Shown here in pieces: positions 8,799 to 43,783 of a stretch of 43,783 nucleotides of DNA (position 1 is its first letter; each line of letters starts with the position of its first letter). Source of the stretch: an uncultured Bacilli bacterium (GTDB lineage Bacteria; Bacillota_I; Bacilli_A; RF39; UBA660); contig CALVID010000005.1 of the NCBI GenBank assembly GCA_944329355.1, positions 1 to 43,783 of the forward strand, read 5' to 3'. The notes under the pieces were generated by a model. It saw nothing but the letters and a program-made list of their open reading frames with translations, was not told where the DNA came from and did no database searches. Position numbers and translations under genes: made by a program.

Positions 8799-9416
8799 TT
8801 AAACTGAAACATTAATATTGTTATTATTTTGATATTTCAATACTATATTGGTTATTCTTTTTATTTGTCTTTTCATGTTATGATGATGATAATAATTTAA
8901 AAGAACTATCATTTTATTTTCTTTATAAATTACAACATCTGGAAAGGCAACAATTTCTTTTTTTTTACTATTTATATATGTAAGGCATTTTAAATATGGG
9001 GATATTTTTTCTTTTATAATTTTTACTTGATGACTATTTATTTTAAAAACTATAATTTTTATTGGAATATTTAATTTGCAAATTTTTTCAAACTTTTCTT
9101 GATTAGTACTGTTTAAACCATAGGGAAGTATTTCTTTACAAGTTTTTTTTAAACGATAGTTTTTTTTCATATCATCTAGATAATAGGTAAAAGACCAAGT
9201 GTTACTTTCACAACATATTTCTTTAGATATTTTATAAATAGATCCATGTTCACTGATTATTATATCCGCTTTATGATATCTATCTTTGAATAACCCTTCG
9301 GCTCTACTTTTGCTTACTTGGTCTATCGGAAAAATAATATCTTTTTCTCCTTTTACACTTGTATACCAATAGGCAATGTGTTTACTTAGTGATGATAACA
9401 GTTTATCATTATCCAT
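8799..9416 (-). CDS. hypothetical protein
   Basis: 205-aa ORF with no motif I can name. Confidence 0.5.
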   Translation of the reverse strand: MDNDKLLSSLSKHIAYWYTSVKGEKDIIFPIDQVSKSRAEGLFKDRYHKADIIISEHGSIYKISKEICCESNTWSFTYYLDDMKKNYRLKKTCKEILPYGLNSTNQEKFEKICKLNIPIKIIVFKINSHQVKIIKEKISPYLKCLTYINSKKKEIVAFPDVVIYKENKMIVLLNYYHHHNMKRQIKRITNIVLKYQNNNNINVSV

Positions 9417-14088: not shown

Positions 14089-14988
14089 ATGAAAAAGGGT
14101 TTTAAAAGTAAATCATATTATGAAGTTCAGCCAATATCTTTAACTTCAGATTTGTTAGATATTGCTGATATGTTACAAGATTTAAAACAATCTAGACTAT
14201 CACAGTTATCTGATGATGATTTTAACGAGCTAATATACAAAGGAAAACTCCCGTTTTTGAATAATTCTTTCAATTTAATATCAATACCTTTTATACCTTA
14301 TGATTTATTACAAAAACTTGAAATAATTAGTAAATACAAAGAAATGGATTTTAATTCATTTATAGATTTAATTAATAATTATTTGACTACTCTTGACCCA
14401 TTTAATATTCCAATACTATCTGATGATACATTAGGATTTGAAGGTGGTTATTGTAACCCTATGTTTTTTGGAGTTAACGGAGAAATAGAAAAACTTATAT
14501 TTACTGAATTTGTAATTACTAATAAATTATCTATATTAACACCAGGAATATATGCTCATGAAATTGTACATTCCCAACTAGAATTTAATAATGGAGTAAA
14601 TAATTATATTCACAGTGAAGTGTTACCTATATTTTTTGATAAATTAACTGCTTTATACGTAGATAATAATTATGAAACTTTAAAGATTAATGAGAAATTA
14701 AGATTTATTAAATTATTTAAAGCGATAGATTGGCTTAAAAGTAATAACTTATCTTTATACCAGGAAACTAAATTATCTATGGGTATTATTTCTATTTTAG
14801 AAGCGGAAAAACTATTTGATAGATATTTATATGGAACTAATAATGATAAGGATAATATAATTTTAAGAATCAATGATGTTTTATTAGGAAATATAAAACT
14901 AGAAGATTTATTGAAAGATACCGAAATATCTGTTGATAGTTGCCAAGATAAGAAATTAATTAAAAGGAAAGTGAACGGTTTACTTTAA
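14089..14988 (+). CDS. hypothetical protein with an HExxH motif (putative metallopeptidase)
   Basis: 299 aa. GIYAHEIVHSQLE is the only recognisable motif. Confidence 0.55.
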   Translation: MKKGFKSKSYYEVQPISLTSDLLDIADMLQDLKQSRLSQLSDDDFNELIYKGKLPFLNNSFNLISIPFIPYDLLQKLEIISKYKEMDFNSFIDLINNYLTTLDPFNIPILSDDTLGFEGGYCNPMFFGVNGEIEKLIFTEFVITNKLSILTPGIYAHEIVHSQLEFNNGVNNYIHSEVLPIFFDKLTALYVDNNYETLKINEKLRFIKLFKAIDWLKSNNLSLYQETKLSMGIISILEAEKLFDRYLYGTNNDKDNIILRINDVLLGNIKLEDLLKDTEISVDSCQDKKLIKRKVNGLL

Positions 14989-17456: not shown

Positions 17457-17533
17457 TGGTCGGGAAAACAGGATTTGAACCTGCAACCCCCTGGTCCCAA
17501 ACCAGGTGCTCTACCAAGTTGAACTATTTCCCG
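17457..17533 (-). tRNA. tRNA-Pro (UGG)
   Basis: Reverse complement CGGGAAA...CCTGG-TTTGGGA-CCAGG...TTTCCCGACCA. Confidence 0.9.
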
Positions 17534-17539
17534 ATATAA

Positions 17540-17616
17540 TGGCGCGCCCAGTAGGAGTCGAACCCGCAACCTTTTGATCCGTAGTCAAACGCTCTATCCA
17601 ATTGAGCTATGGGCGC
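17540..17616 (-). tRNA. tRNA-Arg (ACG)
   Basis: Reverse complement GCGCCCA...TTTGA-CTACGGA-TCAAA...TGGGCGCGCCA. Confidence 0.9.
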
Positions 17617-17634
17617 ACTTCTAAATACATATAA

Positions 17635-17663
17635 ATATTATCACAAACAAATATTATAGTCAA
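17635..17663 (-). promoter_or_regulatory. SigA-type promoter for tRNA-Arg/tRNA-Pro
   Basis: On the minus strand: TTGACT (17658-17663), a 17-nt spacer ending in TGA, and TAATAT (17635-17640). Confidence 0.5.
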
Positions 17664-17735
17664 GCTCAATTGTCTATTCAATATTATGTTAATATTAAAT
17701 AAAATATAATTTTAATTCATAATTGTTTTTTAAAA

Positions 17736-17752
17736 CCGTTGAATTTCAACGG
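17736..17752. terminator. palindromic stem-loop between tRNA-Phe and the Arg/Pro promoter
   Basis: CCGTTGAA-T-TTCAACGG flanked by A and T runs on both sides. Confidence 0.4.
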
Positions 17753-17764
17753 TGATTTTTTTAA

Positions 17765-17840
<76 letters not shown>

Positions 17841-17845
17841 ATAAA

Positions 17846-17921
17846 TGGCGGTTCCGACGGGAATTGAACCCGCGATCTTCTGCGTGACAGGCAGACGTGA
17901 TAACCGCTACACTACGGAACC
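17846..17921 (-). tRNA. tRNA-Asp (GUC)
   Basis: Reverse complement GGTTCCG...TCTGC-CTGTCAC-GCAGA...CGGAACCGCCA. Confidence 0.9.
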
Positions 17922-17922
17922 A

Positions 17923-17999
<77 letters not shown>

Positions 18000-18012
18000 A
18001 TATAAATTTAAA

Positions 18013-18103
18013 TGGCGGAGAAAGAGGGATTCGAACCCCCGCGCCGTTTCCGACCTCCCGGTTTTCAAGACCGGTCCCTTCAACCAGACTTGGGTATTTC
18101 TCC
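18013..18103 (-). tRNA. tRNA-Ser (UGA), long variable arm
   Basis: Reverse complement GGAGAAA...CCGGT-CTTGAAA-ACCGG plus an extra arm; 91 nt. Confidence 0.88.
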
Positions 18104-18107
18104 ATGT

Positions 18108-18196
18108 TGGTGCCTGAGGCCGGACTTGAACCGGCACGGGATTTGACTCCCGCAGGATTTTAAGTCCTGTGCGTCTACCTATTTCGCCACTCAGGC
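18108..18196 (-). tRNA. tRNA-Leu (UAA), long variable arm
   Basis: Reverse complement GCCTGAG...CAGGA-CTTAAAA-TCCTG plus an extra arm; 89 nt. Confidence 0.88.
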
Positions 18197-18234
18197 ATTT
18201 AAAAGTCTTAAAGTAGACTTTAGTAACAATAAAA

Positions 18235-18310
18235 TGGTGGCCTGTCCGGGATTCGAACCCGGGACCCTTTGATTAAAAGTCAAATGCTCTACCGACTGAG
18301 CTAACAGACC
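18235..18310 (-). tRNA. tRNA-Lys (UUU)
   Basis: Reverse complement GGTCTGT...TTTGA-CTTTTAA-TCAAA...ACAGGCCACCA. Confidence 0.9.
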
Positions 18311-18312
18311 AT

Positions 18313-18387
18313 TGGTTGCCTCGGCTAGATTCGAACTAGCGAATGCCACAGTCAAAGTGTGGTGCCTTACCGCTTGGCTACGAGGCA
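18313..18387 (-). tRNA. tRNA-Gln (UUG)
   Basis: Reverse complement TGCCTCG...CCACA-CTTTGAC-TGTGG...CGAGGCAACCA. Confidence 0.88.
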
Positions 18388-18394
18388 ATAAAAG

Positions 18395-18478
18395 TGGTGG
18401 AGAGAGATGGATTCGAACCATCGAACCCGAAGGAACAGATTTACAGTCTGCCGCGTTTAACCACTTCGCTACCTCTCC
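18395..18478 (-). tRNA. tRNA-Tyr (GUA), long variable arm
   Basis: Reverse complement GGAGAGG...GCAGA-CTGTAAA-TCTGT...; 84 nt. Confidence 0.88.
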
Positions 18479-18511
18479 AAGTAACTTATTTAATTTTATT
18501 ATTTCTTATTT

Positions 18512-18586
18512 TGGTTGCCTCGGCTGGATTCGAACTAGCGCATGTCGCATTCAGAGTGCGATGCCTTACCACTTGGCTACGAGGCA
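18512..18586 (-). tRNA. tRNA-Gln (CUG)
   Basis: Reverse complement TGCCTCG...TCGCA-CTCTGAA-TGCGA...CGAGGCAACCA. It has the same acceptor stem as the UUG copy and an A:C mismatch in the T stem. Confidence 0.82.
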
Positions 18587-18594
18587 ATATAAAA

Positions 18595-18670
<76 letters not shown>

Positions 18671-18677
18671 AAAAAAA

Positions 18678-18754
18678 TGGTGGGCGCTATAGGACTCGAA
18701 CCTATGACCCCCTGCTTGTAAGGCAGGTGCTCTAACCAACTGAGCTAAGCGCCC
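18678..18754 (-). tRNA. tRNA-Val (UAC)
   Basis: Reverse complement GGGCGCT...CCTGC-CTTACAA-GCAGG...AGCGCCCACCA. Confidence 0.9.
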
Positions 18755-34817: not shown

Positions 34818-35843
34818 TTACATTTTTTCTATATCTTTAGTCTCTTTTAACAATTTATCAAAATCAGAAACATAATTTTTATCTTGAATAATTTTGTATT
34901 TATCATACTCACCTTCAGCTTTTTTTACTGCCATTTTATGGGATATTTTACCTTTACCATCTAATACTTCATAATGAAATAATGTCAAAGCATTTTCTAC
35001 TTCTTTTTTCCAATCATTCATATACATTGGAATATTTCTTTCTGCATTATTTTCAGCAATATCAAGAAATAAGTTTACTAAATTATTTAAATTCTTAATT
35101 TCTTTTTCATCCAAGTAATTTTTAGCAATAGTAACATCAGATTTTAGTATCTTACCATTAGGAGAATTTTCCCATGTTGTAAGTCCCATGTTATCTTTTT
35201 TAGCATCCACCCTATTATAAATAATTTCGGCTGCTGTTTGGCCTGTGATAGCAAAATGAAACTTATTTTGAACCGTTTTATAAAATGTTATAGCTTCATC
35301 ACTATTCTTATCATAATCAATAGAACATTCAGCAAATATATCGGTAATCTTTTGATAAAACATCCTTTCACTTGTACGAATTAATTTAATTCTTTCAAGT
35401 AATCTTTGAAAATATTCTTGATCAGTTCTCCTTGCTTTCATAAATCTTTCATCATTTAAAGCAAAACCTTGAACCATATAATCTTTAATAATTTTATTAG
35501 CCCATGTTCTAAACTTAATTGCTTTTTTAGAATTAACTCTAAAACCAATAGAGATAATCATATCAAGATTATAATATGGATAAACTCTCTTAACCTCACG
35601 GTTACCTTCTTTTTGAACTTGTGCAATTTTTGCACAAGTTAAATTTTTTTCTAATTCTTTATCATTATAGATATTTTTAATATGACGAACAATACCACTT
35701 CTATCAATATTGAAAAGAGTTGCTAATGCTTCAGTATTTAACCAAACATCTTCATTTTTTAAAAGAACTTCAATTTTTATATTTCCTTCTTTATCGTTAT
35801 AAAACAAAATATTTTTTTCATTTCCTACTAATTTATCATTCAT
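34818..35843 (-). CDS. RhuM-family virulence/Fic-associated protein
   Basis: 341 aa with ILFYNDKEGNIKIEVLLKNEDVWLNTEALATLFNIDRSGIVRHIKNIY and YYNLDMIISIGFRVNSKKAIKFRTWA. Confidence 0.8.
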   Translation of the reverse strand: MNDKLVGNEKNILFYNDKEGNIKIEVLLKNEDVWLNTEALATLFNIDRSGIVRHIKNIYNDKELEKNLTCAKIAQVQKEGNREVKRVYPYYNLDMIISIGFRVNSKKAIKFRTWANKIIKDYMVQGFALNDERFMKARRTDQEYFQRLLERIKLIRTSERMFYQKITDIFAECSIDYDKNSDEAITFYKTVQNKFHFAITGQTAAEIIYNRVDAKKDNMGLTTWENSPNGKILKSDVTIAKNYLDEKEIKNLNNLVNLFLDIAENNAERNIPMYMNDWKKEVENALTLFHYEVLDGKGKISHKMAVKKAEGEYDKYKIIQDKNYVSDFDKLLKETKDIEKM

Positions 35844-35928: not shown

Positions 35929-36018
35929 TTATATTGGTTTCCTTTTCCCATCTTGTGATGCTATTTCAAATTTGTACTGAAACACCTTTCCTCTTTTTAC
36001 TACATTTACTTTTCTCAT
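35929..36018 (-). pseudogene. 29-codon remnant of an integrase arm-binding N-terminus
   Basis: MRKVNVVKRGKVFQYKFEIASQDGKRKPI* has the KRGK..QY......DGKRK pattern of phage/ICE tyrosine-integrase N-termini. Confidence 0.55.
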
Positions 36019-36235
36019 TACACAATTCCTTACTCTATGTAAACGGAGTTATTTTAATAAAAAAAGCTAGCAAATGAATGCTAACTTTTTTGTTTCCAAA
36101 ATTATTTCCAAAATTTTTCCCTTATTTTATAAGGCTTTCCAGAGGTTTTGGTAACATCTTTTTTAATTTTGGAAACAAAACGGAAACAAATCGACGATTT
36201 TTTGTGATTTTTTGATTTTTAAAACCTTCGCAAAC

Positions 36236-36453
36236 CCTTATTTTATAAGCTATTTGCCACAACAATTTTTATATTTTTTTCCACTCCCACATGTTCAAGC
36301 AATCCAAGTATTTATAGTATTATCAGTATTTACGTAATTATTGGTATTTCAAGGCTTTGTGGCACTGGTAATAAAAATATTTGCGGTATTTATAGTACTA
36401 TGAGTACTATGTTTATTTTACTATTTGAAAACATTTTGGAAACATTGTGTGCA
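36236..36453. repeat. att-like direct repeat, copy B
   Basis: See copy A. The minus-strand remnant here reads TCGSGKKYKNCCGK*. Confidence 0.8.
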
Positions 36454-36703
36454 TCTGTTTACGTAATCTATTATAGCACATTTTTATTTAAAATCACTTC
36501 ATATTTAATTTTCTTATAATTGTTAGTCAAAAAAAGCATAACATAAATATTTTACTACGTTTTGAACATTTATATTTGTATCACATAAAAATATACTTGG
36601 TATACCATGTATATTAGCAATCTTCTTTTTATTAAAAAGTCGTAAAAAAAAAAGAAGATGTAATATTTGGACTTGTCAATAAAAAGTAGACAGTAAAAAA
36701 GAG

Positions 36704-37561
36704 TTATTTAAACCCTAGTTGAGTTCTATACTCAATTGGGGTTTTATAATTTAATGCATAACTTGGTCGATAATTATTGTTATCGTATATAATATCATCA
36801 ATAAATTCTTGAACTGTGTTATAATTATTAATGTCAAAGTCAATATACATTTCCTTTTTAATCCAGCCGTTTTTGGATTCGATTACTGGATTATCTGTAG
36901 GTGTGCCAGCTCTAGACATTGATCTGGTTATATTATAGGAATCAAATATATTGTTAAATGACGCTGAGGAATATATAATGCCTTGATCTGTGTGAACAAT
37001 GGTTTCTAGGTCTTTATATCCTCTTTTTATTTTGTTGTTTAACATATTCTTTACTGCTTTTTCATGATTCAACACTCCATTTCCGTACATTGTTTCTCTA
37101 ACATCCGAGCCAACTATTTCATTATTAAATACATCCAGATAAAATGTCCAATCATATTTTTTTCTTTTAAACCAAAATGAAGTAGTATCTGAAACTATTT
37201 TTTCAAATGGCCTTTTTGTTTTCCAATTATACCCAATTATATTTTCATATTTAACAGATTCTTCACCCGGTTTCTTATATTTATAATGTTTTGCTTTTGA
37301 TTTTATATTTAATATCTTACATACTTTATGTACTAAGTTATCTGATACAATCCATCCAGTTTCATCAACTATTATTTTTCTTATTCTATGATATCCATAA
37401 CTTGGTTTTCTTTTATGAATATTTTTTATTAATTCTCCTAAGTCTCTACGGTTAATCTCATATCTATTTAAAATGTTTCTTGTCTTAAGCCATTTATAAT
37501 AACCACTTCTTGAAATATTCATAATTTTACATAAAGATTTTATATTATACTCCTTACTCAA
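36704..37561 (-). CDS. IS3 transposase OrfB (rve/DDE integrase core)
   Basis: 285 aa from the first in-frame start (TTG, 37559-37561). The frame is open upstream to the slippery site at 37639-37645, so it is probably made as an OrfAB fusion by a -1 frameshift. Confidence 0.85.
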   Translation of the reverse strand: MSKEYNIKSLCKIMNISRSGYYKWLKTRNILNRYEINRRDLGELIKNIHKRKPSYGYHRIRKIIVDETGWIVSDNLVHKVCKILNIKSKAKHYKYKKPGEESVKYENIIGYNWKTKRPFEKIVSDTTSFWFKRKKYDWTFYLDVFNNEIVGSDVRETMYGNGVLNHEKAVKNMLNNKIKRGYKDLETIVHTDQGIIYSSASFNNIFDSYNITRSMSRAGTPTDNPVIESKNGWIKKEMYIDFDINNYNTVQEFIDDIIYDNNNYRPSYALNYKTPIEYRTQLGFK

Positions 37562-37590
37562 TATTTCGACTATTTCAAATTCCTTTTGTT

Positions 37591-37950
37591 TTATTTCTTG
37601 AATACTACAATTGAACCATCTCCTTTCACAAGGTATCCTTTTTTTAATCGTTCATTCTCGATTCTTAATTTCATATTTTCATATTCTAATTCTTCTTCTC
37701 GATTCTTAAAGTGCTTTTTAGCGTATATTTTAGCTAATGGATTCCCAGGCTTTTTTTGGTTTTTTAATCCTTCTATTCCATGCTCTTTATATTTTCTGAC
37801 CCATGTACTTAACATTCCATTACTAATTCCAGTTCTTCTTGTTACTTCACCAGAAGTTAATTCATAATCTAATATTGGTTTAATTATTTTATACTTTTCT
37901 TCTGCGGACCAATATTTGTTTTTTCCTCCTTTAGGTCTTCCTTTTGCCAT
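37591..37950 (-). CDS. IS3 transposase OrfA (HTH)
   Basis: 119 aa with MAKGRPKGGKNKYWSAEEKYKII...GISNGMLSTWVRKYKEHGIEGL and a leucine-zipper-like C-terminus. Confidence 0.85.
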   Translation of the reverse strand: MAKGRPKGGKNKYWSAEEKYKIIKPILDYELTSGEVTRRTGISNGMLSTWVRKYKEHGIEGLKNQKKPGNPLAKIYAKKHFKNREEELEYENMKLRIENERLKKGYLVKGDGSIVVFKK

Positions 37951-38046
37951 CTTATCATCTCCTTAATCTAATTTTACCAAAAGAAAAAGTAAACACATCT
38001 TTTTTTGTGTCTACTTTTATCTTATAAGTTCAATGTAATATTCTTC

Positions 38047-38346
38047 TCAATCACTTACTCTAATATTTGTACCATCAACATTTTTATATACACGTTTCTC
38101 ATTTTTAGAAACTTTTTTCATAATTTCATCTTCTAAATCAAAGCCTAACATTTCAGATAAGCCAAGCAAATAAATTGCAATGTCAGCCAATTCTTCATTT
38201 AGATCATCTTTTTTCTTTCTGTAAGCATCAAAGGCTTCTGCTACTTCCCCATACAAAAAGCAAAACTCTTTTTCTACATTTGTGGTATTAAATCCTTTAT
38301 TTAATTTGTTTTGCCAAACTTCTTTTTGAATTTGTTTTAAATTCAT
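38047..38346 (-). CDS. MazG-like all-alpha nucleoside-triphosphate pyrophosphohydrolase
   Basis: 99 aa with the metal-binding pattern GEVAEAFDAYRK...NEELADIAIYLLGL (E-x2-E...E-x2-D). Confidence 0.75.
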   Translation of the reverse strand: MNLKQIQKEVWQNKLNKGFNTTNVEKEFCFLYGEVAEAFDAYRKKKDDLNEELADIAIYLLGLSEMLGFDLEDEIMKKVSKNEKRVYKNVDGTNIRVSD

Positions 38347-39910
38347 ATTCTACCTCCCTATTAAATTCATTATAGTAATTTACTACTCTTTCTAAATTAT
38401 AATATAAAAATGAATCAAGTTCAATGGGACTTAGAGTTTTGTCATTACAAATTGTAATTACAGGATACTTTTGTTTTTTTATTTCTATATACCCTATATT
38501 ATCTGTTGTTTCAATATATGAAAAATAATCTTTATTATAAACATTGTCCATTGTAGTTTCAGAAACGAAATGTCCACCATTTTCATATCTTTTAGTATTT
38601 CTCTCTTTTCTAATAGTTAATGGTGATACTAAATTAACTATAACAGTATTTTCTTTATGTGGTAAATAATCAAGTATAGAATCAATACTTCTTTTATAAA
38701 CATTCTTACCAAACTCATGTTCATACAATTCATCTTTACCACGAGAAAATTGAATTATATTATTTTTAGAATGTAAAACAGATACTGCTTTTTCTAAAAT
38801 CATATCCCATAAAATAGGTCTAATAATATCATGTCCATTTCCATCAAGAGATTTTTTTGTATAGTGATTAATATTATCATAGTTTGCAATATACTCATTA
38901 TAAATATTATCCATAAATTTTAATTTATCTTTTAATTTAGTAAATTGGTCTTTACTTAAAACTAATGATTCATCATCCAACATAAATGTTTCTAATAATG
39001 GTTCTAAATCATCTACATCAGTATAAATATCATAATATTTTTTTAGATAATTAATAAATGTTGTTTTTCCAGAACACGAATTACCAATTACAATTATATT
39101 ATTAGGTAAACGTTTAGGTGTTATTATATTAAATGAATCAATATTTCTATCTATGTTTGTTAATGCTCCAACTCTTTCTAAAGAAATATAACTATTTTGT
39201 ATTCCAAAAGAAACGGATTCATTTATAGATTTCCCATCTATGTATTGAGATAAAAATCCTCCTATAAAAGTATCACCTGCACCTGTGGATGAAACAATAT
39301 TATCTTTTGGTTGTATTGGAAAACATAAATTTCCTGTTGGGGTGATCACAATCACAGGCTTATCCTCATTAGTAATAATTTTATAAGGAATCTTATTTAT
39401 ATAATTTTTTATTAGAGAATATTCCTTCATATTACAAAATAACAATTTTATTTTCTCTTGATACTTTATAATATATGGCAACATATCTTCAACACTATGA
39501 ATCATTACATCCACAGATAGTGTTTGAAATTTTATATTAGGATTATCCAATATAGATTCTATATTTACGCCTTTTCTAAATGAAATATTCAAATGATTAA
39601 TATTAATTTGTTTAGAAAACGTAAAAGGCTTATTATAATATTTTAATCCTTCACAACTTCCATCGTTTTCATTTAATTTAAAAGTTGTAATATTGTCATT
39701 TACATTACCTAAATTTATAATATCACAATGTTGTAATAAATCATTCAATTCCTTATTTACATTACTTATAATCGCAATGTTTTTATCAGAACAAGTTCTA
39801 CATGATAATGAGCTATATATAGCACTTCCACCATAAGTTTTATATTGTTCTTTACCAGCCATAATATAATCAATAGAACTATTACCAACAAAACAAATAT
39901 TAATCATCAA
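38297..39910 (-). CDS. fusion of a PfkB-family (ribokinase-like) sugar/nucleoside kinase and a P-loop kinase-like domain
   Basis: The N-terminal half carries the PfkB signature SSTGAGDTFIGGF. The C-terminal half has the Walker A motif IVIGNSCSGKTTF. Confidence 0.7.
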   Translation of the reverse strand: MMINICFVGNSSIDYIMAGKEQYKTYGGSAIYSSLSCRTCSDKNIAIISNVNKELNDLLQHCDIINLGNVNDNITTFKLNENDGSCEGLKYYNKPFTFSKQININHLNISFRKGVNIESILDNPNIKFQTLSVDVMIHSVEDMLPYIIKYQEKIKLLFCNMKEYSLIKNYINKIPYKIITNEDKPVIVITPTGNLCFPIQPKDNIVSSTGAGDTFIGGFLSQYIDGKSINESVSFGIQNSYISLERVGALTNIDRNIDSFNIITPKRLPNNIIVIGNSCSGKTTFINYLKKYYDIYTDVDDLEPLLETFMLDDESLVLSKDQFTKLKDKLKFMDNIYNEYIANYDNINHYTKKSLDGNGHDIIRPILWDMILEKAVSVLHSKNNIIQFSRGKDELYEHEFGKNVYKRSIDSILDYLPHKENTVIVNLVSPLTIRKERNTKRYENGGHFVSETTMDNVYNKDYFSYIETTDNIGYIEIKKQKYPVITICNDKTLSPIELDSFLYYNLERVVNYYNEFNREVEYEFKTNSKRSLAKQIK

Positions 39911-40398
39911 ACTAACCTCTTAACCTTTGCTTGAATTTGTGATTTATTTTCTAAACTCGTATTATATTGGTAAACATCAATATAATCTTCACTATATCGC
40001 ATTATAGAATCATATTGTTTATCAAGCAAATCATAATATTGCATAATTGTATTGTAGTCACCAATATCAGACAATCTTCTGGCTAATAAAGTTTCTTTTG
40101 AAGCCGTTAAATATATAATAGATGTATCTACTTGTTTATATGCCATTAAAAGTTTTGTATATTCTTCTAAATTAATTTTACTTTTTCCTCTCAAAATTGG
40201 TCCATATACCATTTCACTAATAAATGAGCGATCTAGTACTAAACTGCCAGTATCTTCCTTTAATATTCGCATATACTTAGTCATTAAGTCCATATTTCTG
40301 ACATCATAATCGAAATGATATTTTTTCATACCATTAGATACAAAATAATCTACTAAAGTCGTTTTCCCTACTCCATCCATTCCTTCAACTATCAGCAT
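39907..40398 (-). CDS. thymidylate-kinase-like (d)NMP kinase
   Basis: Contains MLIVEGMDGVGKTTLV (the Tmk-type P-loop EGxDGxGKTT) and LDRSFISEMVYG (the DR[YF] region). At 163 aa it is shorter than a housekeeping Tmk. Confidence 0.7.
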   Translation of the reverse strand: MLIVEGMDGVGKTTLVDYFVSNGMKKYHFDYDVRNMDLMTKYMRILKEDTGSLVLDRSFISEMVYGPILRGKSKINLEEYTKLLMAYKQVDTSIIYLTASKETLLARRLSDIGDYNTIMQYYDLLDKQYDSIMRYSEDYIDVYQYNTSLENKSQIQAKVKRLV

Positions 40399-40417
40399 TT
40401 TATCACCCCATTACTAT

Positions 40418-41185
40418 TTACTTTTTACATTTGCATAAAACCTTTACTCCTGCTTTAGCAAGAGGACATTCTTCAGGTCTATGTTTATTACAAAAATGTC
40501 TTTTATAATAAATTAATACTAAATGACTCCACCAGGTAGCATTAGAGGTATCAGGAATATTTAAATTACTATATCCATTTTTTTCTATAATATCTTTTAA
40601 ATCTAAATTTCTAGTTAACTCCTCGAGTTCTTTCCTTAAATAATCGTGTCCAATAGCAGTTTTATATGTAGAAAAACCTAAACAAGGTAATTCTATATCT
40701 TTCATTCCACTATCTACTGGCATAATTCCAGACTCATAATATCCACGCATATAAAGAACACAACATTGAGCCACTTTATAAGATGCTCCAGAAACATTTT
40801 TAGCAATTAACTCAATTAATTCTTCATTTGATAATTTTAGCAAATCATTTGAACGCTCTTCGATAAAATGAATCATTGAGTGAATATACTTATATCTTGT
40901 GTTTGATAAACCTAATCCTTTAATAATTTCTTTTATCTGCTGTTCTGACAAATTTTTTATTTCATCATAACTAAAACTATCTAGATTATCTATTACTTTC
41001 TGATAACTATGAATCATATTATAAGATATTCTGGTGGAAAGACCTGCGATTAATAATCTTTTGCGATAATCTGTTACTTTTAATGGCCACCACATATTAT
41101 CATCATGGTTTTTAAATATATCTTCACGAACACAATCTTGACTACTACATATATCAAGTATGTTTTTATATTCTTTCTTTTCCAT
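40418..41185 (-). CDS. HhH-GPD (endonuclease III/glycosylase-fold) superfamily protein, divergent
   Basis: Contains LLIAGLSTRISY..., the HhH-like segment VSGASYKVAQCCVLYMRGY followed by MPVDSG (Asp at the GPD position), and the C-terminal Cys pattern C-x8-C-x10-C-x-C. Confidence 0.55.
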   Translation of the reverse strand: MEKKEYKNILDICSSQDCVREDIFKNHDDNMWWPLKVTDYRKRLLIAGLSTRISYNMIHSYQKVIDNLDSFSYDEIKNLSEQQIKEIIKGLGLSNTRYKYIHSMIHFIEERSNDLLKLSNEELIELIAKNVSGASYKVAQCCVLYMRGYYESGIMPVDSGMKDIELPCLGFSTYKTAIGHDYLRKELEELTRNLDLKDIIEKNGYSNLNIPDTSNATWWSHLVLIYYKRHFCNKHRPEECPLAKAGVKVLCKCKK

Positions 41186-41195
41186 ACACTTCTCC

Positions 41196-41840
41196 TTATA
41201 AATTTTCTCTAATTATTTTTGAAAATAAACTTGAATTACTAGAAATTACCTTCACGTTTAGTTTTCTTTCAACATTGCTAATAAAATGCAAAGTAGGAAG
41301 ATTTGTGCAAGAAATAATAATATCTCCATCATCACTTTGATAATTATTAATGATAAATTTCTCAAGTTTATTTTTTCCAAAGTCAAAATAATCTTTAGTA
41401 TTAATTAGATTTAAATTAATTATTCTATTTACATTAATATAATTGCCTTCAAGTTCTTTTTTAACTTTACTGCCAAGCTCATCATTATATGGGGTAATTA
41501 GCAAGCATTTCTTTATATTTTTTAACTTTGCTTCTTCGACTAATGCTCCAGCTGGATTATTTGAAATGTTTAAATTTTCACTAACAATGGCAGATGATGT
41601 ACAAAAATATCCAACATAATAAACATCTAAGTATGTTAAATTCTCTGTTTTGTTGTTACTGTCTTCCGCTAACTCTTTTAAATACTGCTCTTTATTTTCC
41701 TTATAACTAGTCTTATAATCTAACTTTGCAGTATAAAAAATATAATCATTACAATCTAAAATATTCTTATTAAATAAATACTGTAGCTCATGTTCAACTG
41801 TTAAATTAGTCTTTGGAATTAGTAACCCTATTTTTCTCAT
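41196..41840 (-). CDS. Asp/Glu/hydantoin-racemase superfamily protein (maleate-isomerase/arylmalonate-decarboxylase-like)
   Basis: Contains KIGLLIPKTNLTVEHE and two candidate catalytic Cys motifs, YFCTSS and ISCTNLPT. The protein ends with VISSNSS. Confidence 0.6.
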   Translation of the reverse strand: MRKIGLLIPKTNLTVEHELQYLFNKNILDCNDYIFYTAKLDYKTSYKENKEQYLKELAEDSNNKTENLTYLDVYYVGYFCTSSAIVSENLNISNNPAGALVEEAKLKNIKKCLLITPYNDELGSKVKKELEGNYINVNRIINLNLINTKDYFDFGKNKLEKFIINNYQSDDGDIIISCTNLPTLHFISNVERKLNVKVISSNSSLFSKIIRENL

Positions 41841-43363
41841 AAAAGTTCTCCTAAAATTGTTCTATTTCCAACATATCCAATTACTCTAATTTTATAAAAA
41901 TGATCTAATTCTAACTTTTTATTTTTAATAACAATCCTAACTGGACAAGTTGCCATTTGTCTTAAAATTGAATTGCCATCTTTATACATTTCCATTCTTA
42001 ATTCTGAAATAACTAGACCAATCGGAAAAACTTGTTTTAACATTGGTACACTAAATTCCTTTTCAATAGTATCACTCCATACATGAAATTCTTTCAATTC
42101 TTCTTCATTATAATGATCAAATTGTTCCCCATACGGTGAAGTTAATTTACGTACAAAAACTCTACGAACCCAATTTCCAGAATCTAATATTTTTTTAAAA
42201 TTATCTAAATTATATTGTAAAGTTTTTTCTGTTTGTCCATCCAAACCATAAATAATATTTATACCAGGTAATAGTTTAGGTAAACCTGTTTTTCCACGCT
42301 CTTTACCAAATTTATTAATTATAGCTATTGATTTATGAATATCATTTATAGTCCCATTTAAATTACATTTTTCTCTAACAACTGGATCAAATGACTCAAC
42401 GCCAAAAGGTGTGATATTACCATCAGTTGTATATTTAGCAACTACTCTAGTAATCTCTTTACCTTCTTTGGTATCAACATTATGAGGGCTAACATTATCT
42501 ATATGGAGTGTTTTAATATTTGGACATTTTTCCCATATTTCCTTAAAAAGTAATTCAATTTCTTTAGCATTACAGTCCTTATATGCATAAAAATTTGGTT
42601 GTCTTCCTAATCTAAAATATAAAGCTCCCTCTTGATACAAACTATAAATTTCATTTACAATATCTTCTCTTTCTCTAAATTGTAACGGTAACCCTCTCAT
42701 TCCTTCTATACAAAATGTACATCCAGGATTTCTGTTACATCCTGTAGCTGTTTCTATTTCGATAACTAATGGTCTTTCTAATTGTTTTAAAACGTCACTA
42801 GAAGCAATTGCTATGTCCTTTAGTTTATCATAATTTGGATTAAATCTATTTCCTGAATTGTCAATAAAATAATTATATGTATTACCAAAAACAATATCAT
42901 TAAACAAATTTTCTGGAACGGTCTTTTTGATATGTCTTCTTGTCAATTCATTACCACCAAGTGAGTAAAATAAAACCTTGTTACTTTCTTTTAGACTATA
43001 TTTGTTAAGTAATTTTTCCATTTCTAAAAAAGTCGGTGGCTCTGCTGAAACATATTCATATTTTACAAAACATCCCATAACTACATATATATTATTTGCA
43101 CTTTTTAAAATATCTTTTACATTATCTTTGTTCTTAGTTGTATTTAAAATTCTCTTATTAAATGAATTTTCAAAATGTGTTTCACCATCACAATATCTTA
43201 AATCATCTATTGTTAAATAATAATATTTCCTTTTCAGTTGTGATAATGCTCCTGCAATATATCTTGAATGAACACTAAAAAATGGTGGTACACCTAATCC
43301 TGAAGGTTCATCTGTATATCCATCAATAATAACATCATAATTCATAAAATTCCTCCTAGTCAA
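41837..43363 (-). CDS. radical-SAM-like enzyme with an atypical C-x5-C-x2-C cluster motif
   Basis: 508 aa with an N-terminal IIDGYTDEPSGLGVPPF module, the core motif ETATGCNRNPGCTFCIEG, and a later GINIIYGLDGQT. The C-terminal beta-rich tail (YKIRVIGYVGNRTILGE) is reminiscent of TRAM-type tails. Confidence 0.65.
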   Translation of the reverse strand: MTRRNFMNYDVIIDGYTDEPSGLGVPPFFSVHSRYIAGALSQLKRKYYYLTIDDLRYCDGETHFENSFNKRILNTTKNKDNVKDILKSANNIYVVMGCFVKYEYVSAEPPTFLEMEKLLNKYSLKESNKVLFYSLGGNELTRRHIKKTVPENLFNDIVFGNTYNYFIDNSGNRFNPNYDKLKDIAIASSDVLKQLERPLVIEIETATGCNRNPGCTFCIEGMRGLPLQFREREDIVNEIYSLYQEGALYFRLGRQPNFYAYKDCNAKEIELLFKEIWEKCPNIKTLHIDNVSPHNVDTKEGKEITRVVAKYTTDGNITPFGVESFDPVVREKCNLNGTINDIHKSIAIINKFGKERGKTGLPKLLPGINIIYGLDGQTEKTLQYNLDNFKKILDSGNWVRRVFVRKLTSPYGEQFDHYNEEELKEFHVWSDTIEKEFSVPMLKQVFPIGLVISELRMEMYKDGNSILRQMATCPVRIVIKNKKLELDHFYKIRVIGYVGNRTILGELL

Positions 43364-43783
43364 TTAACGTACTTACGTGAAATGGTAAAAATTTATTTCC
43401 AAGTTCTTTAATTCCTTTAAATAAAATGTCGTGAGTATCATCTATTAATACTGCATACTCATATTTTTTTGATTCCAATTTTTTCTTAATAACTTGAATT
43501 TTAGCATCTTTTCGTGATTCAAAATTAGCATTATAAGTAAAAATTCTATTTTCTTTTTTTATAAAATCAGCATACTTATCAAGCCACTCATCCTTTTCAT
43601 CTGCCTGTTCTTTAAAAAAGCAAGAGCTTAAAATATAAACATCAAATCCTTCTTCATCATTAATTTTTTTCAAATTATTAATTGTAGTATATATAGGCCG
43701 TTTCTTTAGATACGTTCCTTGTACATTATTTTTTATATTTTCTTCTTTACCAAACCTATTATCTGCAATGACTTTTTCTTTTT
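43356..43783 (-). CDS. HAD-type 5'(3')-deoxyribonucleotidase (NT5C)-like protein, 5' end outside the window
   Basis: The frame stays open from 43673 to the window edge (...KEKVIADNRFGKEEN...). Contains DVYILSS, EKDEWLDKY and VLIDDTHD. The ORF-track TTG start is probably internal. Confidence 0.55.
   Translation of the reverse strand, partial: KEKVIADNRFGKEENIKNNVQGTYLKKRPIYTTINNLKKINDEEGFDVYILSSCFFKEQADEKDEWLDKYADFIKKENRIFTYNANFESRKDAKIQVIKKKLESKKYEYAVLIDDTHDILFKGIKELGNKFLPFHVSTLID

Follow-up and report, generated by a model that had tools for sequence, protein, structure and literature searches.

A rare, co-conserved cassette of nucleotide and DNA-base enzymes in uncultured gut Bacilli, with a possible role in non-canonical pyrimidine chemistry

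We analyzed a stretch of 43,783 nucleotides (nt) from an uncultured Bacilli bacterium (GTDB lineage Bacillota_I, Bacilli_A, RF39, UBA660; GenBank assembly GCA_944329355.1, contig CALVID010000005.1, forward strand), referred to in its full length as the window. Positions 38047-43783 consist of seven tightly packed minus-strand open reading frames (ORFs), which had been read in an initial annotation of the letters alone as one unit made only of nucleotide and base enzymes. The comparison with related genomes bears this out, since the genes are co-conserved across 34 bacterial loci, and there is strong evidence that they form one functional system, which as judged from database and literature comparisons corresponds to no named pathway or system. 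On balance, we lean slightly towards a dedicated system for rewriting nucleotides or DNA bases rather than ordinary housekeeping salvage. Among the specific explanations, the one that we rank first, with a probability of roughly 0.3, is that a non-canonical pyrimidine deoxynucleotide is the product of the cassette and is processed in the carrier's DNA. The seven genes are as follows.

Gene 1, 43356-43783, minus strand: NT5C-like HAD phosphatase (5'(3')-deoxyribonucleotidase family), with its 5' end beyond the window edge
Gene 2, 41837-43345, minus strand: radical SAM enzyme of a small uncharacterised family, with an alternative TTG start at 43363
Gene 3, 41196-41840, minus strand: two-Cys protein resembling maleate isomerase and Asp/Glu racemase, translationally coupled to gene 2
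Gene 4, 40418-41185, minus strand: HhH-GPD protein of DNA-glycosylase fold, with OGG1/EndoIII-type K137 and D158
Gene 5, 39907-40398, minus strand: short Tmk-like P-loop kinase of (deoxy)nucleoside monophosphates, (d)NMP, with the motifs EGMDGVGKTT and DRSFISEMVYG
Gene 6, 38297-39910, minus strand: fusion of a PfkB/ribokinase-family kinase and a P-loop kinase resembling polynucleotide kinase (PNK) and AAA_33
Gene 6, N-terminal PfkB part, about 39125-39910, minus strand: GAGD motif
Gene 6, C-terminal P-loop kinase part, about 38297-39124, minus strand: GNSCSGKTT motif
Gene 7, 38047-38346, minus strand: small all-alpha MazG-like nucleoside triphosphate (NTP) pyrophosphohydrolase, the last gene of the cassette

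To determine the distribution of the cassette, one genome per GTDB species was scanned (185,579 species). The 159 relatives of the radical SAM enzyme that were retrieved show the cassette to be rare and patchy; of the loci, 60 are bacterial and 28 archaeal. Bacterial carriers comprise metagenome-assembled genomes (MAGs) of gut "Bacilli" and "Tenericutes", Dojkabacteria, Saccharibacteria, one Patescibacteria single-cell genome, Gastranaerophilales, gut Alphaproteobacteria, Rickettsiales, Kordiimonas and Chloroflexi, and the archaeal sources are Woesearchaeota, Nanoarchaeota, Methanosarcinales and Thermococci. Co-conservation was counted over 34 bacterial loci whose flanks were long enough. Of the kinases, the Tmk-like one was found in all 34, PfkB in 33 and the P-loop one in 31. 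The radical SAM enzyme, the racemase-like two-Cys protein and the HhH-GPD protein, whose neighbourhood conservation the initial annotation had proposed to examine, also stay together: the two-Cys and HhH-GPD proteins are each encoded in 33 of the 34 loci, and the locus lacking a typical two-Cys gene (L052) has a divergent copy. MazG was present in 25 loci, being replaced by a Ham1 inosine triphosphatase in the alphaproteobacterial type, and NT5C in 24; in the others a HAD domain is fused to the Tmk-like kinase. The order of the genes is shuffled between lineages, and the fusions differ as well (HhH-GPD::Tmk, Tmk::HAD, PfkB::Tmk and PfkB::P-loop). The PfkB and P-loop halves of gene 6 are separate genes in Alphaproteobacteria, Patescibacteria and variants on mobile genetic elements (MGEs). 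It is this persistence of the same partners despite shuffled order and varied fusions that argues strongly for a single functional system.

In the window, 4-nt overlaps join the radical SAM and two-Cys genes (41840/41837) and the Tmk-like and PfkB genes (39910/39907). The overlap between the PfkB and MazG genes reaches 50 nt (38346/38297) and is kept in the gene calls of relatives, and gaps of 10 nt (41196/41185) and 19 nt (40418/40398) separate the two-Cys from the HhH-GPD gene and the HhH-GPD from the Tmk-like gene, respectively. The seven ORFs and the junctions described initially were thus recovered, with one qualification: the 8-nt overlap between the NT5C and radical SAM genes (43363/43356) exists only if the TTG at 43363 is the start of gene 2, and the relatives are called from the ATG at 43345 (502 amino acids), which leaves a 10-nt gap. 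All the motifs and family assignments proposed at that stage were also found again, and Pfam supports each of them, NT5C remaining below the cut-off in the cut window copy. Compared with three relatives of 79-87% nucleotide identity, dN/dS was 0.06-0.36 for the seven genes (0.12-0.17 for NT5C), and because the ratio is low in all seven, they can be taken as real, functional genes under purifying selection. The cassette has a guanine-plus-cytosine (GC) content of 24-28%, matching that of most of the window (roughly 25%); it is not compositionally foreign, and its earlier description as accessory DNA of about 20% GC has to be corrected.

The operon had also been expected to continue upstream of the window, and in this respect the relatives give a different picture. 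In loci whose proteins are 85-96% identical, the first gene encodes a complete NT5C-like phosphatase of 165 amino acids with the HAD motif DMDGV; before it come about 320-410 nt of non-coding DNA and then unrelated genes, which differ between loci (SecA in L001 and L010, a DNA methylase in L003). What the window lacks of gene 1 is only about 70 nt. At the end of the window, the final 12 bases (43772-43783) are rich in A and disagree with every close relative, mostly by changes from G or T to A, which is probably a sequencing or assembly error at the contig end and not a broken NT5C gene. Rfam searches detected a riboswitch 5' of the cassette in none of seven loci nor in the window, and the promoter scan produced matches at least as frequently in shuffled as in real sequence.

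The radical SAM enzyme is recognized by the Pfam model Radical_SAM (PF04055) with 34.4 bits (cut-off 29.5; E 3.1e-8). C209, C215 and C218 are the only invariant cysteines among 23 radical SAM sequences and are spaced as CX5CX2C, in some as CX4CX2C. Its AlphaFold2 (AF2) model (pLDDT 91) consists of a flavodoxin-like N-terminal domain, a radical SAM core and a TRAM-like C-terminal domain, and the best Foldseek matches were MiaB, MtaB and RimO (E 1e-16, TM 0.6-0.7), followed by a weaker likeness to MgmA, TsrM, AprD4 and OxsB. The three-domain fold is common to the MiaB/RimO/MtaB methylthiotransferases, whereas the three N-terminal cysteines that hold their auxiliary [4Fe-4S] cluster are missing from the cassette enzyme, which rules out a methylthiotransferase identity. 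In place of these cysteines, the N-terminal domain bears an invariant acidic/His motif (D-x-Y-T-D-E-P-S-G...H); C15 occurs in at least 90% of the sequences and is Gly in the window protein. Against NCBIfam, TIGR00089 gave 23.8 bits (cut-off 251) and TIGR01578 22.5 bits (cut-off 314.7), neither reaching its cut-off, and an identity as RaSEA, QueE or viperin was discarded, as none of these models, including the viperin model NF038283, was among the NCBIfam matches of the window enzyme. With 1808 relatives in a 90%-clustered protein collection and 379 among 1.84 billion 50%-representatives (E <= 1e-3), the family is small and sharply delimited.

Synthesis of a nucleoside natural product, for example a peptidyl- or high-carbon nucleoside antibiotic, would be in keeping with the similarity of the fold to AprD4 and OxsB. 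The blasticidin, mildiomycin and polyoxin pathways combine a radical SAM enzyme, a nucleoside monophosphate (NMP) glycosidase, a thymidylate synthase (TS)-like enzyme and a phosphatase. However, the cassette contains no glycosyltransferase, aminotransferase, ligase, exporter or resistance gene, it is compact and invariant, and its hosts are minimal-genome symbionts, so that we rank this explanation fifth and regard it as very improbable.

The partner of the radical SAM enzyme, the two-Cys protein, matches the Pfam family Amdase (PF17645) with 31.2 bits (cut-off 25.9; E 2.2e-7), and its best match in the Protein Data Bank (PDB) is the maleate cis-trans isomerase 2xec (3e-7). N12, E16, C80, P117-Y118 and C178-T179 are invariant across 14 orthologues. 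The two catalytic cysteines of maleate isomerase are thereby retained, as are its Asn and Tyr positions, although the identity to the maleate isomerase/Asp-Glu-hydantoin racemase superfamily is low (3e-7) and the cassette protein, unlike the members of that superfamily, is always paired with the radical SAM enzyme. Because these four positions are kept, the protein is predicted to carry out thiol or enolate chemistry beside a carbonyl or carboxylate.

The HhH-GPD protein is likewise a divergent member of a known fold. It matches Pfam PF00730 with 27.5 bits (cut-off 26.2; E 4.2e-6), and its AF2 model (pLDDT 82) retrieved exclusively DNA glycosylases in Foldseek (MagIII, EndoIII, MjOgg, NTHL1, MIG and MutY). 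K137 and D158 are invariant within the motif 'GASYKVAQC...PVDSG' of the orthologues, which aligns with that of chain 4ejy; we take these residues to occupy the positions of Lys249/Asp268 in OGG1 and Lys120/Asp138 in EndoIII. Since the Lys and Asp are placed as in these two enzymes, bifunctional glycosylase/lyase chemistry on DNA is plausible from sequence and model. The cassette family shares with OGG1 and endonuclease III the fold and a Lys followed by an Asp about 20 residues on, but differs from them in several respects: identity is only about 15%, it has N-terminal motifs of its own ('NHDNNxWWP' and 'AGLSTRxSY'), and it is always found within the cassette, often fused to the Tmk-like kinase. 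The cysteines of the C-terminal four-Cys [4Fe-4S] loop of EndoIII and MutY are not conserved among the orthologues, some being absent from L048 and L007. Queuosine salvage by a Qng1-like glycosidase and a queuine lyase was rejected, given that Foldseek returned DNA glycosylases only and no QueK or QueT is linked.

The retained Lys and Asp would also suit a base-excision repair kit, in which the radical SAM enzyme reverses or processes a lesion, the OGG1/EndoIII-like glycosylase/lyase excises it, the PNK-like kinase and the HAD protein, acting as 3'-phosphatase, heal the ends, and MazG or Ham1 sanitises the deoxynucleoside triphosphate (dNTP) pool. The P-loop half of gene 6 is PNK/AAA_33-like, the HAD protein weakly matches a PHROG annotated 'polynucleotide kinase', and frequent neighbours of the cassette include RecR, RNase HII, Mfd, Fpg, UvrD, RecA, UDG, RuvA, RuvC, RadC and a Y-family polymerase. 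Yet neither the PfkB kinase nor the Tmk-like NMP kinase has a role in base-excision repair, the two-Cys isomerase is left unexplained, the radical SAM enzyme is unlike spore photoproduct lyase (SPL), and rarity, horizontal transfer and carriage on MGEs are atypical of core repair. A repair operon is thus unlikely and comes fourth in our ranking.

The remaining proteins belong to families of kinases and nucleotide hydrolases. The Tmk-like kinase, with 163 amino acids a short protein, matches the Pfam family dNK (1.3e-5), the NCBIfam dTMP kinase (8e-5; 22.4 bits against TIGR00041, cut-off 83) and the PHROG 'thymidylate kinase' (1.2e-14), and its EGxDGxGKT and DRSFxSExxYG motifs are invariant. 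The PfkB half of gene 6 reaches 56 bits with Pfam PF00294 (cut-off 25.8; E 5e-15) and has the motif GAGDTFIGGF; it resembles ribokinase, nucleoside kinase and ribose-1-phosphate kinase in NCBIfam, reaching no equivalog model. The P-loop half is matched weakly by AAA_18 and AAA_33 in Pfam and is predicted to be a new PNK/AAA_33-like kinase. The MazG protein matches Pfam MazG-like PF12643 with 37.2 bits (cut-off 27; E 3.7e-9), PF03819 with 28.8 bits (cut-off 22) and a PHROG pyrophosphatase (1.4e-15), its nearest PDB chains being archaeal MazG-like proteins, DCTPP1 and MazZ. The NT5C copy of the window, which is cut before motif I, gave 22.7 bits with Pfam NT5C (cut-off 24.8; E 1e-4) and 8e-4 with NCBIfam HAD-IIIC; its full-length L010 orthologue (165 amino acids, 96% identical) bears FVDMDGVIAD.

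Such an assembly of kinases and hydrolases could instead serve salvage, sanitation or metabolite repair in nucleotide-auxotrophic hosts with reduced genomes. The PfkB, Tmk-like and P-loop kinases would phosphorylate scavenged or damaged nucleosides, MazG or Ham1 would remove aberrant NTPs, and the radical SAM and two-Cys proteins would convert, or the glycosylase split, a nucleotide that is damaged or otherwise of no use. This is consistent with the hosts, most of which are symbionts or fermenters with small genomes (RF39-like Bacilli, Patescibacteria, Gastranaerophilales, gut Alphaproteobacteria and Rickettsiales), with the resemblance of PfkB to the sugar and nucleoside kinases named above, with housekeeping flanks that often contain more nucleotide hydrolases (HD, HD_3, NUDIX and Ham1), and with a minimal version of the cassette, L057, that lacks the glycosylase. 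In contrast, the cassette was found in about 60 bacterial species and only a handful of Patescibacteria, far too few for a general solution to auxotrophy; it also resides on high-GC mobile elements beside TraG and restriction-modification (R-M) genes, an enzyme acting on a free nucleotide would not be expected to have a DNA-glycosylase fold and a lyase-type Lys, and no transporter, phosphorylase or phosphoribosyltransferase is linked. We rank salvage third and consider it doubtful.

The synthesis of a non-canonical pyrimidine for the carrier's own DNA, our preferred explanation, accommodates all seven proteins in four steps; what was observed are the folds, catalytic residues and fusions, the gene content and its co-conservation, and the substrate, order and product of the steps are what we infer. 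In the first, MazG (elsewhere Ham1) and the NT5C/HAD phosphatase would turn a (d)NTP into a (d)NMP or nucleoside, supplying the substrate and holding the canonical pool low. The radical SAM enzyme and the coupled two-Cys protein would then perform the key chemistry on the base or on an attached group, the latter acting via thiol addition or proton shuffling beside a carbonyl or carboxylate. In the third step, the Tmk-like, PfkB and PNK-like P-loop kinases would re-phosphorylate the product or activate a hydroxyl as a phosphate leaving group, for which HMP kinase and the phage kinase for 5-hmU in DNA (5-HMUDK) offer precedents. Finally, the HhH-GPD protein, with its Lys/Asp pair and its fusion to the Tmk-like kinase in many lineages, would flip out and process the base in DNA. 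The net outcome would be a non-canonical base in the DNA of the carrier, a cell-encoded counterpart of phage hypermodification. Support comes from the co-conservation, the fusions, the invariant Lys and Asp in a glycosylase fold and the parallel with phage clusters in composition, as well as from genes for base chemistry in variants, MGE and conflict contexts, rarity and the weak likeness of the P-loop half to 5-HMUDK. In its most far-reaching form, which we put forward even more tentatively, uncultured gut Bacilli, Patescibacteria, Gastranaerophilales, Alphaproteobacteria and some conjugative elements would carry a novel hypermodified or replaced pyrimidine in their own DNA, made by the MiaB-fold radical SAM enzyme and the two-Cys protein and installed or processed by the OGG1-like HhH-GPD protein fused to a kinase; assembled from non-orthologous parts, this system would be the first counterpart of phage hypermodification encoded by cells.

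Some variants of the cassette contain additional genes that bear on the nature of the base. The initial annotation had suggested looking for a TS-like hydroxymethylase, and a TS-like gene does lie inside one Chloroflexi cassette (L052, 14574-15320). Its product has Asp in place of Asn177, as in T4 dCMP hydroxymethylase, where this residue sets dCMP specificity, but Ser in place of the catalytic Cys, and no TS-like gene was present in the window or in the remaining 59 of the 60 loci of the genome scan. L089 (9302-10075) has a gene for a QueC-like PP-loop ATPase (SGGIDS) between the two-Cys gene and the HhH-GPD::Tmk fusion, and an ASCH-like protein is a further addition seen in variants. Together with the DCTPP1-like character of MazG, the dCMP-type Asp, the QueC-like and the ASCH-like proteins point loosely to pyrimidine, perhaps cytosine, chemistry. 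The minimal L057 version, which consists of Ham1, the radical SAM enzyme, a Tmk::HAD fusion and the two-Cys protein and lacks HhH-GPD, PfkB and P-loop kinase, suggests that the core chemistry takes place at the nucleotide level and that the three missing proteins form a second stage.

The closest parallel in composition is found in phages. Thymidine hypermodification in phages employs a 5-hmU DNA kinase, a radical SAM isomerase, a pyridoxal phosphate (PLP) enzyme and aGPT-Pplase, which resembles HhH glycosylases (PMC8989533). The resemblance to this pathway had been raised in the initial annotation, in agreement with the published account; the parallel in composition stands, but the parts are not orthologous. 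The cluster of phage ViI is ordered Pplase - 5-HMUDK - TS - dNMP kinase - dUTPase, and that of phage M6 additionally contains an HD hydrolase. The logic of the repertoire in Pseudomonas M6 and Salmonella ViI is the same as in the cassette: a pyrophosphatase or dUTPase, a dNMP kinase, a PNK-like P-loop kinase, and HhH glycosylase-fold and radical SAM enzymes with an HD protein or other nucleotidase nearby. In Bacillus phage Goe26, the 5-HMUDK-like domain forms the N-terminal part of a 636-amino-acid protein. On the other hand, the cassette lacks the PLP enzyme and adds PfkB and the two-Cys isomerase, and its radical SAM enzyme, which has the MiaB fold and is not SPL-like, belongs to a different fold subgroup. 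In hhalign, the HhH-GPD protein gave a probability below 1% with the aGPT-Pplase candidates M6 gp51, M6 gp55 and ViI 062c. The P-loop half reached 80% (E 1.3e-5) with the M6 5-HMUDK gp54 and 56%, over the lid segment only, with a three-sequence 5-HMUDK profile, a marginal similarity compatible only with shared PNK/AAA_33-type ancestry.

A second parallel is offered by phages that replace a base before replication, such as T4 with dCTPase, dCMP hydroxymethylase and dNMP kinase, SPO1 with dTMPase and dUMP hydroxymethylase, and the Z-genome phages with MazZ. In these pathways, as in the cassette, a dedicated dNMP kinase stands alongside an NTP pyrophosphatase and a dNMP nucleotidase; the pathways differ in using a TS-like or PurZ enzyme where the cassette has the radical SAM and two-Cys proteins in a cellular setting.

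Several observations weigh against a cell-encoded DNA-base modification. None of the cassette parts is orthologous to a phage hypermodification enzyme, the phage clusters are viral whereas the cassette is cellular and absent from IMG/VR viral contigs, and no hydroxymethylase is conserved, the sole TS-like protein carrying the Cys-to-Ser change described above. The cassette has neither a restriction partner nor a DNA-targeting subunit, and in gut Bacilli its flanks are ordinary, variable and made up of housekeeping rather than island genes. Furthermore, the closest folds of the radical SAM enzyme have RNA or protein as substrate, the N-terminus of PfkB looks ribose-binding and ribokinase-like, and, to judge from L057, the core chemistry does not need the glycosylase.

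The claim that the gene set fits no named system held in all the collections that we consulted. None of the cassette proteins reaches a curated cut-off in NCBIfam, PHROGs returned generic pyrophosphatase and thymidylate-kinase matches only, and the gene set is described in no searchable paper, although an earlier in silico mention may exist. In PADLOC-DB 2.0, the MazG, PfkB::P-loop, two-Cys, radical SAM and NT5C proteins were without a match; the HhH-GPD protein gave one weak BrxA match (E 0.0033) and the Tmk-like kinase of the window weak P-loop matches only. Among 18 orthologues of this kinase, 16 matched VakA (best 1.7e-9) and 17 PDC-M51B.

These last matches are compatible with an anti-phage module that acts through a toxic nucleotide analogue or a reshaped nucleotide pool, the explanation ranked second, which we regard as possible but not probable. 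The radical SAM and two-Cys proteins would make a polymerase poison that the three kinases convert into its triphosphate; MazG and NT5C would restrain poisoning of the producer, and host DNA would be cleared of the analogue by the glycosylase. The placing of a Tmk-like kinase next to a radical SAM enzyme is reminiscent of viperin and CMPK2, and this pairing is common to the cassette and to prokaryotic viperins. Moreover, an archaeal homologue of the radical SAM enzyme (46% identical) adjoins a viperin-like gene: in L092 (9427-13041), an HD phosphohydrolase, the homologue, a viperin-like radical SAM protein that matches NF038283 at 3.5e-23 and a 215-amino-acid ORF stand in a row, which could be a nucleotide-analogue module. 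The patchy, horizontally transferred distribution and some contexts with Mrr, R-M, Cas and MGE genes fit the same idea, and nucleotide-modifying domains have been predicted, without validation there, as defence components (PMC13092281). Against it, the cassette radical SAM enzyme does not match the viperin family model, viperin adjacency is limited to one locus, and the cassette, in contrast to prokaryotic viperins, comprises another five or six enzymes. Apart from the weak BrxA match, PADLOC has no model that fits six of the seven proteins, the operon shows neither sensor nor regulator, and a census of 134 non-redundant flank proteins revealed no enrichment of defence genes. Among the 156 Pfam families of this census, the commonest were further nucleotide hydrolases (HD, HD_3, Ham1 and NUDIX), GNATs and DNA-metabolism genes.

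The genomic contexts also inform on how the cassette spreads. The variant L089 is part of a high-GC mobile element, with a serine recombinase, HTH/M78, relaxase-like and RadC genes on one side and TraG and a type I R-M system on the other, and another mobile variant is arranged as RuvC, cassette and TraG. A four-gene version is close to Mrr and UvrD-like genes, and elsewhere a methylase and a Cas gene are found nearby. In L007, the cassette lies between 178-nt direct repeats (9180-9357 and 14594-14771; 93% identical) that are parts of an acylphosphatase gene, which reads as the signature of insertion by recombination. The radical SAM enzymes of gut Bacilli and of contigs assigned to 'Candidatus Dojkabacteria' (L005 and L006) are 73% identical, with the same seven-gene order, reflecting either recent cross-phylum transfer or mis-assigned MAG taxonomy. 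Taken together, the mobile contexts, the L007 repeats and this cross-phylum identity indicate that the rare and patchy cassette is horizontally transferred. A phage origin was ruled out, as IMG/VR viral contigs contained no relative of the radical SAM enzyme or the HhH-GPD protein and tblastn of the latter against 50,697 phage records gave no match. In archaea the radical SAM gene stands alone, L092 excepted, with housekeeping neighbours such as Rpr2, Dph2 and helicases; a complete archaeal cassette was rejected because hidden Markov models of the other six families found nothing within 10 kb of the gene in the 28 archaeal loci.

Should the cassette prove to produce a DNA base or nucleotide that is new, a class of radical-SAM reactions on nucleotides would be added and the OGG1-like fold would gain a new role. 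It would also mean that abundant uncultured bacteria of the human gut and of candidate phyla harbor unrecognised DNA chemistry, which bears on sequencing and restriction, on the conflict between phages and their hosts and on enzymes used as tools to label DNA. Under salvage or defence, too, the cassette would represent a compact system of six to eight domains around a small and sharply delimited radical SAM family of no assigned function that is directly accessible to heterologous expression.

Downstream of the cassette, the window carries an IS3-family insertion element (36667-38033) with 44-nt imperfect terminal inverted repeats, located 14 nt past the MazG stop. Its genes are the following.

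IS3 orfA, 37591-37950
IS3 orfB (rve), 36704-37561

The presence of an IS3 element beside the cassette had been noted correctly, while the 'integrase debris' reported with it is orfB of this same element. A hairpin after MazG (38018-37985) was rejected as a terminator marking the operon end because it lies within the IS3 inverted repeat. Past the element, the native downstream flank picks up again at about 36492, and window positions 36386-36492 match the flank found downstream of the cassette in L001. Positions 35994-36293 are a copy (86-100% identical) of the SecA 3' end and intergenic DNA that lie upstream of the cassette in L010 and L001, and a RhuM-family gene follows at 34818-35843. The SecA-end copy suggests a duplication or rearrangement, and in this genome the cassette may have flanking direct repeats.

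Elsewhere in the window, 13 tRNA genes on the minus strand (17457-18754) cause a local GC peak of 38-42%, and one further tRNA gene, for tRNA-Ala, is located at 156-232. The segment 29000-33200, with 34-38% GC as compared to roughly 25%, encodes an acetate/butyrate-kinase-like protein, a phosphate acetyl/butyryl transferase and an S15 X-Pro dipeptidyl-peptidase, and may have been acquired horizontally.

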